Part shown: positions 3,431 to 9,734 of the stretch, piece after piece | Layout: every line of letters begins with the position of its first letter | Numbering within the stretch: position 1 is the first letter of the stretch | Virus record (IMG/VR): IMGVR_UViG_3300048091_000193 | Coordinates: 1 to 52,696 of that record | Strand: one strand, 5' to 3' | From: a virus | Lineage: Duplodnaviria; Heunggongvirae; Uroviricota; Caudoviricetes | Length of the DNA: 52,696 nucleotides | Made by a program: the position numbers and the translations under genes | Notes under the pieces: generated by a model | Databases searched by the model: none | Told to the model about the DNA's origin: nothing | Seen by the model: only the letters and a program-made list of their open reading frames with translations

Positions 3431-3654
3431 CACTCCCTACATCAATGAAGGATCTGATCAACAGTTACGCGGCAGATGGCAACATCGTCGCGCTGCGACA
3501 GCTCCGAAATCAGAATGCCGAATCCATGGCACGGATCGCTATGATGCCAAGCGATAACGCCGACATGCGAAAGCAGGTGATGGCCTATTACCTGGAGAAC
3601 GTCGACCACATCGACCGGGAAATCGAGAAACTGGGGCCGAGGCAAGTCAAATGA
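3427..3654 (+). CDS. Hypothetical protein
   Basis: ATGA overlaps on both sides. Confidence 0.6.
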   Translation: MTLPTSMKDLINSYAADGNIVALRQLRNQNAESMARIAMMPSDNADMRKQVMAYYLENVDHIDREIEKLGPRQVK

Positions 3655-3866
3655 CCGCCAAATACATCAAGTGCGACGGCTGCGGTGAAACCATCGACCG
3701 TAGACCGGCAGGAGACCACACCAACGGTGGTCATTGGGGCAAGACCGAAGGGCAGAACCTGCGCACCTATGCTCGCTCGATCGGCTGGCAGACCGGTGTT
3801 CAAACCGCTGATAGCTCCTGGGACAGCAACGACTATTGTCCCGCTTGTAAGCCGGTGAAGCCATAA
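3651..3866 (+). CDS. Small zinc-finger-like protein
   Basis: CDGC...CPAC pair; coupled start. Confidence 0.6.
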   Translation: MTAKYIKCDGCGETIDRRPAGDHTNGGHWGKTEGQNLRTYARSIGWQTGVQTADSSWDSNDYCPACKPVKP

Positions 3867-4162
3867 CCGCTGAACAGCTGGCCCAGGCGATCGGCACCGC
3901 CCTCCATACGCATGCCGGCGACAAGTGCGCCTGGAGCACCGAACCGGAGCCTGATTGCTCTTGGGATTCCCCAGACCCAAAAGACGATGGAAAGCCGATA
4001 CCGAGCACGCTGCGCATGAATTACGACGGCGAGATCGATCTGGTGGAGCTCGCCAAAGCCATTCTCGAGGCCCATGGTGGTTCCCTGACACCGGGCCGGC
4101 CTGATAGGGTGAACCAACAAGGGCAGCTGGGAACGAGACTGAATGGCGAATCTGCACCGTAA
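3863..4162 (+). CDS. Possible 99-aa protein with ATA start, or start-mutated pseudogene
   Basis: Open frame ITAEQLAQAIGTALH...MNYDGEIDLVELAKAILEA begins at ATAA overlapping the upstream stop, where neighbours have ATGA. Confidence 0.35.
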   Translation: MTAEQLAQAIGTALHTHAGDKCAWSTEPEPDCSWDSPDPKDDGKPIPSTLRMNYDGEIDLVELAKAILEAHGGSLTPGRPDRVNQQGQLGTRLNGESAP

Positions 4163-4379
4163 CGAGACCGCGAAGCTCGCTGCTAATTTCCTGAACACTT
4201 GCGCGGCCTCCCTGATCACCGTGGGTATATTCACACCGACAGCGGCATATCTGTATGGGATCACAGAGCTAAAGGAAGCATGGCTTCTTGATTATCTTCC
4301 TTATATTTGCATCTGCGGGTCGATCGTCTTACATTTATTCGGGATAGCCGTGCTCCGGCTGATGGAGGACACACCATGA
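4143..4379 (+). CDS. Small two-helix membrane protein
   Basis: Two hydrophobic segments; lower-GC codon usage than neighbours. Confidence 0.6.
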   Translation: MANLHRNETAKLAANFLNTCAASLITVGIFTPTAAYLYGITELKEAWLLDYLPYICICGSIVLHLFGIAVLRLMEDTP

Positions 4380-4798
4380 GCGCCACTCTAGCTCTCACCA
4401 TGCCAGCGATCGCCGTGGGCGCCCTGGGGCTCATGGCCGGCGGTGTAGCCCTGCTGGTCAACAAGCTCTATCCGCGGACGAAGCCACAAGTCAGCGAGGA
4501 GGTCTTCGTCGAGGCGACGGAAACTATGCCGGCGGATGTTATCTACGGCTTAGACAGGGCGCGCACGCTGCACGAGATGCTATCCAGCGCCAGCAAGCTC
4601 CCTACCGGTCCGAGTGCATCCAGCGCGAATTTCGCAGATGTCACCATGGCCGCTCTAAACGCAGGTCTCCCCACGACCAGGCGGCGCTATTTCGTAAAGA
4701 TGCTCAAGCACGTCCATGAGGAGAGGTTCTCTGATAAGGTGCCGGTCAGGTCGCAGGCGGACATTGTCGCGGCGCTCTCGAAAAGCAACACCTTCTAA
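4376..4798 (+). CDS. N-terminally membrane-anchored hypothetical protein
   Basis: GGAGG RBS, ATGA overlap, hydrophobic N-terminus LALTMPAIAVGALGLMAGGVALLV. Confidence 0.55.
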   Translation: MSATLALTMPAIAVGALGLMAGGVALLVNKLYPRTKPQVSEEVFVEATETMPADVIYGLDRARTLHEMLSSASKLPTGPSASSANFADVTMAALNAGLPTTRRRYFVKMLKHVHEERFSDKVPVRSQADIVAALSKSNTF

Positions 4799-5067
4799 AA
4801 TCAGCCTGGCATTCGCGCCTAAGCTGTAACACGCCAATCCTGTAATTGCAGGTAGCGCCGCCTAACACCGGTGCCGGGCGGTTGGTTGCGAGAGAACAGG
4901 CCTCGCCCTGCATATTAACTTCCACGATCCCCACCAGCTTCGTGAGGCCACGGTCGTCTATTTTGCAGGCCGCCCGGCACACTTGAAGGCCATATGTTCT
5001 CGCGCCTCGTCAAGCCGGGCATGGCCAACCAAGACCATGGGATATCCTCCCGACCATCAACACCTAA

Positions 5068-5085
5068 GAAATCAATACTGACTTG
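5068..5085. repeat. 18-bp palindrome family (degenerate copy)
   Basis: GAAATCA-ATAC-TGACTTG. Confidence 0.55.
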
Positions 5086-5485
5086 GCTAGTCCGCGGACG
5101 CATGGCGATCCCCTGTTTCCGGGGTAGTCTCGCCTTCACAAAACAACCAGTAGGACTGGTGATTGTAACAACAAAGACACACCCGGAACTGTTGGTCGCA
5201 AACACAAATCATCCGTCTAATGACAGAATTTCTAGGGATTATCTGTATAAAAACTGTTCATTTACTGTTCGTCGGGAGACAAAATCATCTGAAAACGAAC
5301 AGTTCCCGATCGAGATAGCTCTCAAGTTCCCAGGCGAATCGGTAGAAGAAAGGCCCGAACTTCTCCGAGTCATCACCAAAACGAGTGAAGCGGTTATAAG
5401 CCGCACCTGACTATTTTCGAGATAGAAGAACAAAGCTCCAGAAATAATAAAAACCTCAATAACGGTCGCACCCAATGATCGTCCG

Positions 5486-5600
5486 TAAGAGAGCACCGTC
5501 ACCCACCAGAGAGACGAACGACCATAGAGACGCACACGCCCTAAGAGAGCACCAACACATAGAGCGGACGCATAGACCTATAGAGACGCGTAGAGGGGAG
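5486..5600 (+). repeat. Purine-skewed degenerate tandem repeat (about 19-bp unit, 56-bp super-period)
   Basis: TAAGAGAGCACC at 5486 and 5542; ATAGAGACGC at 5524 and 5580; AGAG cores at 5488, 5508, 5526, 5544, 5561, 5582. Confidence 0.55.
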
Positions 5601-5892
5601 AGGGTGTGCGAATAGAAAGAGAAAAGACGGTGGGTGTAGGCGGCGGGGCCGTTCGCCTTACCATTCCACATTCCCTAAAAGCCACCCAAGGCCGCTCCGT
5701 CAGTTCCCATGGCAAAATCAGGAACCGGTAGAGATCTCCTACCGGCAAGACCCCAACTCGCTCCGTGGCGAAAGCCATCTGGAATCTGGGAGCCCACACC
5801 GGAATTCCCATGGTTTCGCCTTCACCATGGGGCGCCCTTCTATTCCCGGAGTGTGCCATGGCCAGGCCGAGAGCTTCCGACCCGGAAGTTCG

Positions 5893-5942
5893 CCGCGCTT
5901 CGTCTATATACAATACTTAAGTAAGTAAGAGACGAAGCGCGG
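5893..5942. promoter_or_regulatory. Twin hairpin element, copy 1
   Basis: 13-bp inverted repeat CCGCGCTTCGTCT/AGACGAAGCGCGG around a 24-nt AT-rich loop; near-identical core at 18214-18277. Confidence 0.65.
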
Positions 5943-6013
5943 ACACGGAAGTTACATGGGATACTCAGCTATCCATGGCATTTCCGGTGCGACGTTCTCC
6001 CTGAAGACCCCAG

Positions 6014-6089
6014 CCGCAATCCACAAAATCAGCTGTCATGTTGTGTTTGTCGCAATCAAGCGACGCACAACACAGAGAGCACGACGACA
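6014..6089 (+). promoter_or_regulatory. Early-gene leader element, copy E
   Basis: CCGCAATCC (6014-6022), bulged hairpin TGTTGTG..GTCGC/GCGAC.CACAACA, AGAGAG, ATG 6090; 6022-6092 CC/GG-free. Confidence 0.65.
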
Positions 6090-6932
6090 ATGGCAAAGAC
6101 CACGAAGAAGGCGAAGACCAAGACAGAAATTGCGGCCGAGACCACTGAGGCGAATGACGCCGTCGCCTTGATGGCGATCGACACGCTCACCGAAGCGGAT
6201 ATGTCCGTCATCGACACCCTGGAGGCGGTATCGACCGTCCAGGCCGAGGCAGTCTCCGAGATCGTCCTCGAAGCGCCGGCCATGACCGACAATGGCGAAA
6301 CCTTCGAGCAGGTGATGGCGAATGTCGACGACGACATGGTGGACAAGGCCGTCTTCGCCGTCGCAAAGGCGATCGATGACCGCGCCGCCTACGAGAACAT
6401 TCATGGACACCCCAACATCCAGCGCGTTCTCAAGAGCGTGCGCACCGCTTTCGTCTCCAAGTCCGCCACGCGGGCCATGCTCGCTGCCGGTTTCGACGAA
6501 GCGGACATCAATCGCTCGGTGCATGACGGCAAGCGCTACAACGTCTATGCGCTCGGCAAGCTCGCCGATGCCATCAAGGCGCTGTCCGGTGGCCAGATCA
6601 ACAACGCCATCAACAATGCCTGCATGCGCTCCCTCTTTAAGTTCAACAAGGCGAATGTCGCCTTCACGATGGACATGGCGAAAGCAGCCTGTTCCGCACA
6701 GATCCGCGTCGATGCCGCGGTGAAGGGTCTCCTGGTCAGGCATACGGTGTCACCGAGCACCGCGCCCACCCAGGCCTCCTCCACCATGCAGGCATTGGTC
6801 AGCCTCGGTGTCGTCACGTCGTCTGGAGGTGGTCGCAACCCCACCTTCACCGTGACCGAGGCGCCGGCCGCGAAGAAGCTCATGGCGATGCTCTCGACTG
6901 AGGGAGAGGAGGTGCAGGCGCAAGCGGCCTGA
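6090..6932 (+). CDS. Hypothetical protein, acidic N-terminal extension; paralogue of 8299-8880 (possibly winged-helix DNA-binding)
   Basis: Strong phage codon bias; aligns by eye with 8299-8880 (NVYALGKL/NAYAVEKM, NACMRSLF/NATIRSMF, SPSTAPTQASST/SQSTVATQHNST). Fold is a guess. Confidence 0.75.
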   Translation: MAKTTKKAKTKTEIAAETTEANDAVALMAIDTLTEADMSVIDTLEAVSTVQAEAVSEIVLEAPAMTDNGETFEQVMANVDDDMVDKAVFAVAKAIDDRAAYENIHGHPNIQRVLKSVRTAFVSKSATRAMLAAGFDEADINRSVHDGKRYNVYALGKLADAIKALSGGQINNAINNACMRSLFKFNKANVAFTMDMAKAACSAQIRVDAAVKGLLVRHTVSPSTAPTQASSTMQALVSLGVVTSSGGGRNPTFTVTEAPAAKKLMAMLSTEGEEVQAQAA

Positions 6933-7180
6933 CAAGCACATTATGGCGTAAGGGGAGGGGCTTCTGGCTCCTCCTCAGTATTACCGGGCTTTCCCATGGA
7001 AGTTCTAGGTTTAGGAACCGGTGGGGTCCTTGGGACCCACTGATGAGGATCCGTGTGGCGAACGGCGCCGGCCTATCCCAGGCCTGGTCTCCCATGGTGC
7101 GGCCACGGACCGCGTCTCCCTCGGCCAGGCCATGGTGTCTCCGCTGCCGGCCACGGCGCAGCACTCCCTGAAAGCCCCAC

Positions 7181-7241
7181 CCGCAATCCAGGTTTTCATC
7201 TGTCAATGTTGACTTACAGCAACACGACAGAGACCAGCGAC
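7181..7241 (+). promoter_or_regulatory. Early-gene leader element, copy F
   Basis: CCGCAATCC (7181-7189), contains an 18-bp palindrome copy, ACAGAGAC, ATG 7242. Confidence 0.55.
7199..7216. repeat. 18-bp palindrome family (degenerate copy)
   Basis: TCTGTCA-ATGT-TGACTTA. Confidence 0.5.
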
Positions 7242-7478
7242 ATGAACGACAAGCGCCTCTCCCTCATCAAGACCGCGATCGCCTCCACTCTCAACACCAT
7301 GAAGCGCACCAAGGGCACCGACATCGAGATCACGGTGCATCGTGCCCTGATCCAGATGCGCAGCGCGCTGCGACGCGAGCTCACCGGTGAGGATTCGACC
7401 CTGGAGATGATCAGCGCCTCGGCATACCTCGAGAGTGCCAGCTACGCCCTCGGCTTCGTCCCGGTGACCGCACGATGA
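7242..7478 (+). CDS. Hypothetical protein (78 aa)
   Basis: MNDKRLSLIKTAIAS...; phage-typical codons begin only at ATG 7242. Confidence 0.7.
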   Translation: MNDKRLSLIKTAIASTLNTMKRTKGTDIEITVHRALIQMRSALRRELTGEDSTLEMISASAYLESASYALGFVPVTAR

Positions 7479-7561
7479 CCGCGGACATCAAGTGGATGTT
7501 CCGGCTCGCCGTGATAGGTTCGATCGCCATACCCCTTCTCATGGCCTGGAGATTCAATTGA
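7475..7561 (+). CDS. Small membrane peptide (28 aa, not in ORF track)
   Basis: MTADIKWMFRLAVIGSIAIPLLMAWRFN; ATGA and TTGA overlaps on either side. Confidence 0.4.
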   Translation: MTADIKWMFRLAVIGSIAIPLLMAWRFN

Positions 7562-7740
7562 CCACGGTCTGTCTATGCGGCGTCTGTCGCCGGGAGCTTT
7601 CTGAGGAAGACGAGAAGACCGAACACAAGGTCTTCAAGCTTGGTGAACTCGCCTATATCGAGCTCGCCCATGTCGCCTGTGGTCGACGTGAGAACCTGGA
7701 TCTCAAACTAATGTTGCAACCACCCTACTGGGGCCGCTGA
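7558..7740 (+). CDS. Small zinc-binding-like protein
   Basis: TTG start overlapping the upstream stop; CLCGVC...HVAC. Confidence 0.45.
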   Translation: MTTVCLCGVCRRELSEEDEKTEHKVFKLGELAYIELAHVACGRRENLDLKLMLQPPYWGR

Positions 7741-7749
7741 AAGGAGCCA

Positions 7750-7777
7750 GGAGCGCCGCAGGGCGCTCCTTCCTTCT
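7750..7777 (+). terminator. Probable intrinsic terminator
   Basis: GGAGCGCC-GCAG-GGCGCTCC followed by pyrimidine run, just after the 7740 stop. Confidence 0.5.
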
Positions 7778-8019
7778 ACCGGGCACTTCCCATGGTTGCC
7801 GGGCCTGGGCGCCATGGAGGCGGCTACAGGGCTTTGAGGAACGGGCAGCTTTATAGGTGTTCGGTGGTAGGAACCGGTAGGGTCCATGGGATCCGCTAAT
7901 GCGGCCCGAGCCGGCCAAGGCGATCGCCATGGGGTTTCCCATGGGAGGGGCGGGGTCCGCCGTGTGGCTGGAATGCCACTGTGACGGTAGTGCCACGTGG
8001 CTTTTTGACCACGTGACTA

Positions 8020-8037
8020 TAAGTCAACACTGACTCA
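8020..8037. repeat. 18-bp palindrome family
   Basis: TAAGTCA-ACAC-TGACTCA; overlaps the stop of 8035-8235; left edge of the CC/GG-free island. Confidence 0.75.
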
Positions 8038-8235
8038 AAATTCGTGACGCGCTTGCGCATAGCGTTCATGCGCTTCTTGCATGTCTAGGACTTCGTCTTC
8101 GTCATAGTCCAGGAGATCGTCGACATCGACACTATCGAATGCAGCGCGTGCGAGTGCTTTCGCTGTCTTGCTGACGTGACGCTGGACTCGGTGCTGTGAC
8201 TGCGCTGCGCTCATAATCGCGTTATAGAAGCTCAT
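8035..8235 (-). CDS. Small protein with acidic C-terminus; no Gly/Pro/Trp
   Basis: 66 aa; leader CAACAGAGAGAACACGTC-ATG matches early-leader RBS style; DSVDVDDLLDYDEDEVLD tract. Confidence 0.7.
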   Translation of the reverse strand: MSFYNAIMSAAQSQHRVQRHVSKTAKALARAAFDSVDVDDLLDYDEDEVLDMQEAHERYAQARHEF

Positions 8236-8298
8236 GACGTGTTCTCTCTGTTGAGTGAAGCGAGAGAGCGCGCTTTGTCTGCGCGCTCTGTGTGACGC
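8236..8298 (-). promoter_or_regulatory. Early-leader-like intergenic element (hairpin + AGAGAG RBS)
   Basis: Minus strand: AGAGCGCGC-AGACAAA-GCGCGCTCT hairpin, then CAACAGAGAGAACACGTC-ATG. Confidence 0.55.
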
Positions 8299-8880
8299 TT
8301 ACAGCGCGATCTGAAAGTGTTCTGCGATCTTGACGACAGCAGCATTGTCGCGCTTGAGCGTAAACGTCTCGTCATTCGCTGCATTGCGCGCGACATTGAA
8401 CATATCGAGCGCGATCATCGCATTGATCGTGCTGTTGTGCTGCGTCGCAACAGTGCTCTGTGACTTCGTCGTCTGCACGCGCGTTGCTTTGATCTTCGCA
8501 TCAAACTTCGTCTTGATATCGTTCGAGCAAAGCGAAGCGATGACATCGCGCGTCACTTCAATCTTTGCATCTTCGAGCGCGAACATGCTGCGAATTGTCG
8601 CATTCGTGTAGACGTCAAGCTTGTCGAGTGCAGACGACGCTGCGAAGCGTGCAGTGGAGATCATCTTCTCAACTGCATATGCGTTCTTGCTGACATTCGC
8701 GACGCTGAAATTGCAAGCGACAAGCATTGCAACGACGTCGTCATGATCTGCAGCTTTTGCATACTTGTCGAGATTGCGCTGCATATTTGCATTGCTTGCG
8801 TTCTTCGTCAGTTCAGCTGCTTTGCGCATTGCGAATGCTGCAGCGATATCGGACTTGAGCGTTTCGATTGCGTTTGTCAT
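8299..8880 (-). CDS. Hypothetical protein with no Gly/Pro/Trp; paralogue of 6090-6932
   Basis: 193 aa from ATG 8880 after CACAACAGAGAGACACGACG; homology to 6090-6932 visible by eye; coding strand has zero GG and two CC. Confidence 0.8.
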   Translation of the reverse strand: MTNAIETLKSDIAAAFAMRKAAELTKNASNANMQRNLDKYAKAADHDDVVAMLVACNFSVANVSKNAYAVEKMISTARFAASSALDKLDVYTNATIRSMFALEDAKIEVTRDVIASLCSNDIKTKFDAKIKATRVQTTKSQSTVATQHNSTINAMIALDMFNVARNAANDETFTLKRDNAAVVKIAEHFQIAL

Positions 8881-8927
8881 CGTCGTGTCTCTCTGTTGTG
8901 TGTGCATCGCGTTGTTGCGATGACTAG

Positions 8928-8955
8928 ATAATAGCTATTAGACGCGAGTAAGCAA
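8928..8955 (-). promoter_or_regulatory. Candidate sigma70 promoter for the CC/GG-free operon
   Basis: Minus strand TTGCTT-N16-TATTAT, about 50 nt upstream of ATG 8880. Confidence 0.55.
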
Positions 8956-8969
8956 TTCACACATTGTTA

Positions 8970-8987
8970 CAAGTCAGAACTGACTTA
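8970..8987. repeat. 18-bp palindrome family
   Basis: CAAGTCA-GAAC-TGACTTA; right edge of the CC/GG-free island. Confidence 0.8.
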
Positions 8988-9135
8988 TACATTGATATGC
9001 ACGTATGGACGCGCATTCTCGCTCGATTAGCGATCGTGGGACTGGGTGTAGAAATTAAATTGCGAGAAGCGAAGTCCTAGAGAAATTTTGTTGCTTTGAT
9101 CCCATTGCCTTCTGGCTCGCCGAGACGATTCCATT

Positions 9136-9510
9136 CCGGTCCTTGGCCGATCAATCTGCTGCAGTCCTAGCGTTGATCGCTATATTGAGAGCAACCCTCT
9201 CGCGGAGGTGTGGAAAGTAGACACGCTGCGCTCTCATCCGGTTCGCCGGAATGAGCCAATGGTTCTGGGCCTGTCGGTGCTAGTGCTCCTCGGAGACACG
9301 AACCTAAGAACGACAGACGCCGGGGTAACGACCGGCCCGCGAGAGGGGATTTATCCCGGTCCTTGGCCGATCGACAGAACTTTCATCGATCTTAGATGCG
9401 CGATAGTTGTGACGGGTCTACGGGTGTCGCCCCTATACGGGATCGCGTATAAAGGACGGATATACGCGCGTGCGTATAAATCCCGAGGGCAGTGGGACGG
9501 GTCCTTGGCC
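9136..9510. repeat. Dispersed direct repeats in non-coding DNA
   Basis: CCGGTCCTTGGCCGATC at 9136 and 9356, core GGTCCTTGGCC again at 9500; GCGTATAAA at 9445 and 9472 with inverted TATACG at 9434 and 9461. Confidence 0.5.
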
Positions 9511-9734
9511 TATAGCTCGTTCTTGATGCGCCAGGCTTTGACTAGACCTTCGCGCCAGCTCTCTCCCAGCCGATCGAGGGCTTCCATGAGCCCCTTATGC
9601 GAGCCTGGGAGGAGGTCGAGGTTCTCGGTGATCAGCGCAACGGCGATCACCTCCGCGGTGGACATGCGCCCGAGGCTTTCGGGGCTGCGCTCGTAGCGCT
9701 CCGCGAGGCCTAAAATGATCTCGACCGGGTCCAT
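9510..9734 (-). CDS. Hypothetical protein
   Basis: MDPVEIILGLAERY...; start placed at ATG 9734, 2 nt from the upstream stop. Confidence 0.6.
   Translation of the reverse strand: MDPVEIILGLAERYERSPESLGRMSTAEVIAVALITENLDLLPGSHKGLMEALDRLGESWREGLVKAWRIKNEL

Follow-up and report, generated by a model that had tools for sequence, protein, structure and literature searches.

A phage-plasmid operon kept almost free of CC and GG throughout its lineage

We describe a 1-kb island, at positions 8010-9007 of a complete viral genome of 116,696 bp (IMG/VR virus record IMGVR_UViG_3300048091_000193), in which one early transcription unit, made of a core promoter, two genes and a 3' end, is kept free of the dinucleotide steps CC and GG, a trait that is maintained throughout a lineage of phage-plasmids. 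The window analysed here is the first 52.7 kb (52,696 nucleotides, nt) of that genome, and coordinates refer to it unless another locus or the genome is named. To judge by its sequence, the genome is a RepC-type phage-plasmid related to Rhizobium phage RHEph10 and to plasmid pLM21S1; the 127-bp terminal repeat of the record is an assembly overlap.

Composition, anatomy and selection of the island

The plus strand of the island has a single CC (8109) and six GG (8088, 8112, 8184, 8190, 8656 and 8851), with none across the 466 nt of 8190-8656, at a G+C content of 50.5%. These positions and counts, the long empty run and a G+C content of about one half had been reported by a first-pass annotation made from the sequence alone, and they are exact on recount; it had expected some 65 of each step, and over 2000 mononucleotide shuffles the mean is 127 CC/GG, the lowest count being 98 against the seven observed. 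The flanks are as rich in both steps as it had stated, with 102 in the 500 bp at 7510-8009 and 72 in those at 9008-9507. A sliding window along the whole genome shows the island to be unique: every other 300-nt window has at least 0.35 of the expected CC/GG, the longest gap free of these steps elsewhere is 126 nt, and the genome-wide odds ratios are 0.76 for CC and 0.80 for GG. Of the other dinucleotide classes, none is locally purged to a comparable degree in the genome, where TA is merely rare throughout. Within the island, an excess of CG and GC (odds ratios of 1.6-1.7) makes up for the loss, and the remaining dinucleotides are ordinary. Five of the seven residual sites lie at codon boundaries and the other two are TCC serine codons; six of the seven are in a TCC/GGA context, and over 13 islands of this kind the contexts are mixed (CCG, CCA, CCT and CCC, preceded by A, C, G or T).

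Many palindromes persist in the island (18 CGCG, 20 GCGC, 9 TCGA, 8 GATC and 17 TGCA). From such persistence it had been argued that ordinary avoidance of restriction-modification sites does not explain the purge, and the argument holds, true avoidance being global in this genome: GTAC is missing altogether from the 116.7 kb, against about 129 expected, and ATGCAT, GGGCCC, CTCTTC and CTAG are strongly depleted. This depletion is ordinary restriction avoidance, spread over the genome and separate from the island. Except for GTAC, no further 3-mers or 4-mers are avoided in the islands.

The island carries a two-gene operon on the minus strand. Gene 1 (8299-8880, minus strand) encodes P0001, a winged-helix protein of 193 residues, or of 202 if translation starts at an in-frame ATG at 8907, and gene 2 (8035-8235, minus strand) encodes P0002, a small protein of 66 residues with an acidic C-terminal half. 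Both lack glycine, proline and tryptophan, as the first reading of the sequence had it, a joint absence with a probability of about 4e-16 under the amino-acid usage of this genome. Eight nt before each ATG stands the ribosome-binding motif AGAGAG, free of GG (8889-8894 for gene 1 and 8244-8249 for gene 2, both on the minus strand), which is also where it had been placed. The price of the purge thus includes all Gly, Pro and Trp codons, the NCC and NGG codons, and the canonical GGAGG ribosome-binding site. Upstream of gene 1, a putative sigma-70-type promoter, TTGCTT (8955-8950)-N16-TATTAT (8933-8928), occupies 8928-8955 on the minus strand. That the island has a promoter of its own is plausible, and a putative promoter occurs at the equivalent position in four relatives (L007, L003, L008 and L009), but the motif falls below the threshold of a consensus scan.

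Just upstream of the -35 element lies an operator-type palindrome, AGTCAGAACTGACT (8972-8985), and a second one (8022-8035) overlaps the stop codon of gene 2. The first-pass annotation saw an 18-bp palindrome as bracketing the island; the pair turns out to be two of the 28 copies of AGTCA-N4-TGACT in the genome, and hence is no mark of the island, and around each of the other 26 copies the nearest CC/GG on either side is only 1-30 nt away. We also rejected a mobile cassette with its own inverted repeats, given that these repeats are two of 28 operator copies and that the place of the island is constant in relatives. At the downstream edge, a pair of inverted repeats with a CACGTG core (7985-8016), which contains CC/GG, is a possible bidirectional terminator hairpin.

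The constraint falls on the nucleic acid, not on the protein, because codon-matched draws predict far more CC/GG than is seen. With the proteins fixed and the codon usage of the genome, about 51 CC/GG are expected in gene 1 and about 22 in gene 2, against 2 and 5 observed, and none of 5000 draws was as poor in them as the real genes (minima of 33 and 11). Purifying selection on the step is ongoing. Between gene 1 and its closest relative, in the metagenome contig L007 (89% protein identity), 85 nt differ, 48 of them in synonymous codons, and only two CC were created, when possible changes creating CC/GG amount to 27% (synonymous) and 31% (non-synonymous; p ~4e-5); so few gains indicate that the selection is current. 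The codon draws, this divergence and the improbable amino-acid usage support the earlier proposal that selection was strong enough to cost three amino acids. Two simpler origins were considered and rejected: a cause at the level of the protein or of tRNAs (no need of Gly, Pro and Trp tRNAs), because CC/GG at codon boundaries and in non-coding DNA are equally missing, and acquisition from a low-G+C donor or an artefact, because independent isolates, plasmids and metagenomes all show the trait.

The residual sites are strand-biased: with gene direction as the reference, the 13 islands (14.8 kb in all) retain 24 CC and one GG on the sense strand, against a ratio of 1.67:1 predicted from codon structure alone (p ~1e-4). 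Moreover, the purge begins 90-245 nt upstream of the inferred transcription start, and in L003, L008 and L009 it takes in about 170 nt, with about 55% G+C, upstream of the operator palindrome.

Conservation of the island and of its proteins

A purged island of 0.8-1.7 kb, with 0-6 CC/GG, is present in each of 14 alphaproteobacterial relatives examined, and one more contig (L010) is relaxed. It is syntenic in these relatives, in the order helicase, ParA, island and normal paralogue of gene 1, and it was by synteny that the islands of the cultured phages were located. Among the loci with a strict island (L001-L004, L007-L009, L011, L014, L015, L016, L018 and L020), CC/GG are missing from 1334 bp of plasmid pLM21S1 (L014), from 1279 and 851 bp of Rhizobium phages V1VFA-S (L016) and B1VFA (L020), from 1257 bp of a Methylocystis metagenome-assembled genome (L003) and from 1061 and 1102 bp of two IMG/VR contigs (L002 and L004, the latter with 51% G+C and a distant homologue, P0022). 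In Rhizobium phage RHph_N1_15 (L011) a run of 1150 bp without CC/GG is followed by one of 154 bp, and in the Methylobacterium plasmid pAMS5a (L015) a run of 1531 bp by one of 151 bp; a contig of Bradyrhizobium sp. 179 (L001) retains one CC in 1063 bp, three short metagenome contigs (L007-L009) retain 2-4 each, and genome G389 (L018) retains six in 793 bp. All open reading frames of all islands are devoid of Gly, Pro and Trp, and the ribosome-binding sites of all are free of GG, with AGAGAG-type motifs preceding gene 1 in related islands; both faces of the trait, in the DNA and in the proteins, are therefore kept among orthologues.

The DNA is more constant than the genes. Gene 1 of RHph_N1_15 was missed by tblastn and is weak in profile comparison, its DNA being purged all the same, which means that the trait predates the recognisable sequence family. 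Homologues of gene 2 follow gene 1 in L001, L002, L003 and L010, and the other relatives have different small genes in this place, or none, which makes gene 1 the constant cargo. The relaxed locus (L010:1-1139) encodes a protein without Gly, Pro and Trp, yet has 53 CC/GG in 1139 bp, those of gene 1 sitting at synonymous third positions and codon boundaries; a small hydrophobic open reading frame lies between its genes 1 and 2. No island was found in the whole genome of the SSU5-like relative Cyrano, a phage of Escherichia coli (longest gap without CC/GG of 136 nt), in the 41 kb examined of Stenotrophomonas phage BUCTxx99, or in phiLM21, an unrelated temperate phage of the Sinorhizobium strain that hosts pLM21S1 (longest gap of 54 nt). 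A tblastn search with P0001 found nothing in the phage collection and one weak match, from Shinella, among plasmids.

Several islands have particularities of their own. That of pAMS5a (L015:17317-18997; 1.7 kb, three genes) is inverted relative to the helicase-ParA backbone and equally purged. A tract of about 90 nt of alternating purines and pyrimidines, (GTGCAT)n, lies inside the purged island of L004 at the 3' end of the operon (L004:13030-13120). Genes for tRNA-Met and tRNA-Asn and a pseudo-tRNA(CCA) adjoin the island of V1VFA-S (L016:17065-17301, about 250 nt away) and that of B1VFA (L020:8311-8548, about 1 kb away). The contigs L007-L009, about 1 kb long and almost all island, might have been taken for transcripts or for molecules with under-sequenced modified flanks; we rejected this, because most contigs of that collection are about 1 kb long, and a contig could be found only if it contained the gene in full.

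The AlphaFold model of P0001 (mean predicted local distance difference test of 92) is helical in its N-terminal part and forms a winged helix at the C terminus (helix H141-157, then strands E161-165 and E171-175). Of its 19 homologues, with 51-89% identity, nearly all do without Gly, Pro and Trp; the motif STVATQHNS, invariant among them, is the recognition helix of the modelled winged helix. The protein presumably binds nucleic acids, to judge by this model. Its best matches among solved structures are generic winged-helix domains (Z of 6.7-7.8, values that fall in the range of common arrangements); structure searches (PDB with Foldseek, a wide search of VIA, and AFDB clusters) gave only such domains and uncharacterised relatives, a search of the protein atlas gave a sub-threshold lead only, and no Pfam, PHROG or NCBIfam family was assigned to P0001, P0002, P0021 or P0022 at E <= 0.01. 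P0021 (280 residues; 6090-6932, plus strand), whose gene is about 1.4 kb from gene 1, is the normal paralogue: it has Gly, Pro and Trp, its gene has ordinary CC/GG, and it aligns with P0001 at 27% identity over 161 residues (BLASTP, E = 5e-12). Its family counts 244 representative clusters, and within the phage collection it occurs only in ten Rhizobium phages of the lineage. Normal and purged copies also lie within a few kb of each other in L004, G389, RHph_N1_15 and V1VFA-S.

Candidate explanations of the purge

The purge being purely local, it points to a local process, which acts either when this unit is transcribed or on the RNA made from it. Cutting by restriction or by CRISPR (clustered regularly interspaced short palindromic repeats) systems cannot account for it, because such threats bear on the genome anywhere; they would apply only if the island were exposed alone. 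We tentatively favour, at somewhat less than even odds, an operon that escapes a CC-reading activity which disables template DNA. The reader would act at 5'-CC-3' on DNA and disable the strand bearing it, perhaps by nicking it frequently, by modifying it with a bulky group or by some other lesion that blocks transcription. On the template strand a CC, which is a GG on the sense strand, would then stop the host RNA polymerase and almost never be tolerated, whereas one on the non-template strand would be less harmful and occasionally tolerated. The target-free operon would stay transcribable while the remaining DNA is hit, and its products might then relieve the block, or act during it. RNA polymerases are indeed blocked by nicks and bulky lesions on the template strand and largely bypass them on the other. 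The strand bias fits a 5'-CC-3' lesion for this reason, and the reach of the purge upstream of the transcription start favours DNA over RNA as the target. A strand-specific enzyme with a very short word exists in Nt.CviPII, which nicks at ^CCD (PMC3017599). We regard as possible, with more doubt, the specific version in which an enzyme or defence of Hyphomicrobiales or of the phage-plasmids themselves reads bare 5'-CC-3' (as nickase, modifier or adduct-former) and the operon is an antidote or a concurrent regulator. The reader is more likely to be a lineage-linked or conserved host function than a sporadic restriction system or defence, because the trait is inherited across host genera and is missing from phiLM21 (n=1).

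A number of observations weigh against a CC reader of this kind. No CC-specific modifier, nuclease or deaminase is evident by Pfam among the approximately 40 larger open reading frames of the genome; a DUF4942 protein, a domain that this genome encodes as well (see below), is annotated in Cyrano, which has no island; and pLM21S1 reportedly lacks any recognisable DNA methyltransferase (PMC5537653). The bias between strands is built on just 25 residual sites, some of them non-independent. The purged zone upstream is counted as non-transcribed from the inferred start, and a promoter further upstream would favour a reading at the level of RNA. Finally, the immunity of one operon rescues a genome full of targets only if the damage is reversible or tolerable.

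Such an RNA-level escape, in which the mRNA must lack GG/CC read by an endoribonuclease, an RNA modifier or an RNA-binding repressor, seems to us unlikely. The reader might be a host function, part of an abortive-infection or toxin system, or the host-shutoff of the phage itself, and the message of the operon would outlive others. GG is indeed most strongly avoided on the sense strand, the ribosome-binding sites are free of it in all islands, and there is a precedent for genes that escape a sequence-specific RNase by lacking its site, in the ribosomal genes of Bacillus subtilis and MazF. The sequence cleaved by T4 RegB is GGAG, and GA dinucleotides are where CmdT modifies mRNA. But CC is almost missing from the sense strand too, and no single RNA reader covers both; the purge runs 90-245 nt upstream of the inferred promoter; the likely 3' hairpin (7985-8016) holds both GG and CC; and the scan of the approximately 40 large open reading frames yielded no candidate RNase. 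The first-pass annotation had suggested a first-transcribed or first-injected segment in flight from a modification or defence directed at CC/GG. We consider it improbable that the island is a first-entering cassette, placed at the leading end of the virion DNA, alone in the cell for a time, as with the first-step transfer of T5 or the entry of T7 DNA driven by transcription, and compelled to avoid double-strand cutters. Phages of the lineage (B1VFA and V1VFA-S) have fixed virion termini with direct terminal repeats of 3.6-3.9 kb (PMC12509600), in the style of T5 and T7, and the island is self-contained, with its own putative promoter, and borders on non-coding DNA, rich in repeats and hairpins, which could be an entry stop. 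Removing CC/GG would at one stroke erase dozens of common restriction sites (such as GGCC, CCGG, CCWGG and GGWCC) and the protospacer-adjacent motifs (PAMs) of CC/NGG type. Yet DNA rich in CC/GG on both sides would oblige the island to start exactly at the terminus, many other restriction palindromes stay within it, double-strand cutters predict no strand bias, and the inverted island of pAMS5a is as purged as the others. Depletion of PAMs against CRISPR systems (CC for type I-F, NGG for type II) was rejected on its own account, given that a stretch of 1 kb is purged and not the whole genome.

The operon might alternatively exempt itself from its own product, if P0001 or P0021 bound and silenced sites containing CC/GG and the operon were kept free of such sites, a scheme that we hold to be quite improbable. 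The candidate sites, at the same low level of confidence, would be the CCATGG hairpins beside the island: 18 of the 24 copies of CCATGG in the genome lie at 3524-7939, the remaining ~109 kb holding six, and the clustered ones are mostly ttcCCATGG in intergenic hairpins, such as CCATGGG-GTTT-CCCATGG at 7927-7944. Similar clusters adjoin the islands of several relatives (L001, L003, L011, L015 and L018/L019), the winged helix is confidently modelled and has an invariant recognition helix, and the pairing of a normal with a purged paralogue is conserved. Avoidance of one binding site does not, however, require the removal of all CC and GG, and pLM21S1 and V1VFA-S carry islands with no CCATGG in the 25 kb examined. 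Very improbable, finally, is a mutational footprint, left by a local, recurrent CC-directed mutator (e.g., a deaminase acting on a heavily transcribed or single-stranded stretch) whose effects the proteins merely tolerate. Each island is about 10% lower in G+C than its own genome, and the DNA polymerase III alpha of this phage carries a domain of the uracil-DNA-glycosylase superfamily. Against this, it is CG and GC (odds ratios of 1.6-2.2) that have taken the place of the lost CC/GG, not TC, CT, AG and GA, the products of deamination; the proteins are well conserved; deaminases prefer the non-template strand, opposite to the observed bias; and the sharp edges of the purge match a transcription unit.

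Genome context, known systems and significance

The larger open reading frames of the genome encode, according to Pfam, PhoH, a DnaB-like helicase, a primase, an ATP-dependent ligase, CobT/CobS-like proteins, a gp32-like single-strand-binding protein, a flap nuclease, RecA-like and Mre11/Rad50-like proteins, a GHKL ATPase, an RNase T-type exonuclease, two ParB-N proteins and an ABC ATPase. The uracil-DNA-glycosylase-superfamily domain of DNA polymerase III alpha (L022:1743-5102; genome 73743-77102) is C-terminal, at residues 969-1078, and the DUF4942 protein (L023:14336-15709; genome 106336-107709) is fused to a class I S-adenosylmethionine methyltransferase. A companion idea tied the island to a cluster of ParB-N, ABC ATPase and acetyltransferase genes. 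It fails, because Cyrano, whose whole genome has no island, encodes an acetyltransferase-fusion protein and an ABC ATPase along with two ParB-N proteins, and BUCTxx99, without an island in the 41 kb examined, has a comparable cluster in which an AAA-family ATPase accompanies two ParB-N proteins; the cluster therefore does not track the island. A parS-like perfect palindrome with the core CGTTTCACGTGAAACG (L023:18897-18912; genome 110897-110912) is far from the island, which itself contains no parS. In the non-coding DNA between the island and the partition genes are three direct repeats with the core GGTCCTTGGCCGAT (9123-9513). Contigs of related phage-plasmids make up small shares of three public DNA runs, and one of them, of 114 kb, spans the island contiguously; related contigs in these runs omit 9151-9409 or 9151-9426, which suggests that the copy number of the repeats differs.

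Target-free early DNA has classical examples. The first-step-transfer (pre-early) DNA of T5 is free of EcoRI sites, and the gene 0.3 (ocr) region of T7 enters first. The island resembles them in being a small self-sufficient early unit, in a lineage with long fixed terminal repeats, which is free of a target that the rest of the genome contains; it differs in that the target is a 2-nt step and not a 6-bp site, that three amino acids are lost, that there is a strand bias and that the flanks are rich in CC/GG. The depletion of CpG in RNA viruses against ZAP is genome-wide, partial, RNA-level and found in animal viruses; it has in common with our case the selection on a dinucleotide, which here concerns a bacteriophage, is confined to one place and is nearly absolute. 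Phage P1 has a C1 repressor, dispersed operators and C1-controlled early operons, and likewise the promoter of the purged operon carries a copy of a palindromic operator found genome-wide. Because of this operator-type palindrome, the operon probably stays off in the plasmid prophage and is turned on at infection or induction, by analogy. In P1, to our knowledge, no operon is purged in its composition, and its proteins are not related to those of the island.

Closer in principle are the ribosomal genes of B. subtilis, which lack the MazF site UACAUA (bioRxiv 10.64898/2026.08.06.743204): there, too, chosen genes are purged of a short word and stay functional while other transcripts are cut, but the word has 6 nt, it is avoided in the RNA strand only and its reader is known, whereas here both strands and the DNA upstream of the promoter are purged. 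The chlorovirus enzymes Nt.CviPII (^CCD) and M.CviPII show that a virus can use a strand-specific enzyme reading essentially CC (PMC3017599); chloroviruses methylate their whole genome, unlike the single purged operon described here, and no homologue was found in this genome. None of the systems compared joins a local, near-absolute and strand-biased dinucleotide purge with the loss of three amino acids, and the purge is not described in the literature searched, which includes papers on these phages (PMC12509600, PMC5537653).

Our analysis thus adds to the avoidance of target sites, which is well known for sites of 4-8 nt, a local and near-absolute purge of a 2-nt step, which is not. It has been held so long that orthologous proteins have diverged past recognition by BLAST, and the island is a clean evolutionary footprint of a CC/GG reader. 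Its carriers include cultured phages and plasmids, namely RHph_N1_15, the RHEph10-group phages, B1VFA and V1VFA-S in Rhizobium and pLM21S1 in Sinorhizobium, and nature provides the controls, in the form of a relaxed lineage, a normal paralogue close by and related phages that have no island. The reader, once found, could reveal a new mechanism of conflict between phage and host, or an enzyme with 2-nt specificity. If the hypothesis of a CC reader is true, these phage-plasmids would have met a new attack on nucleic acids, of very low specificity, and evaded it by recoding three amino acids out of an operon.

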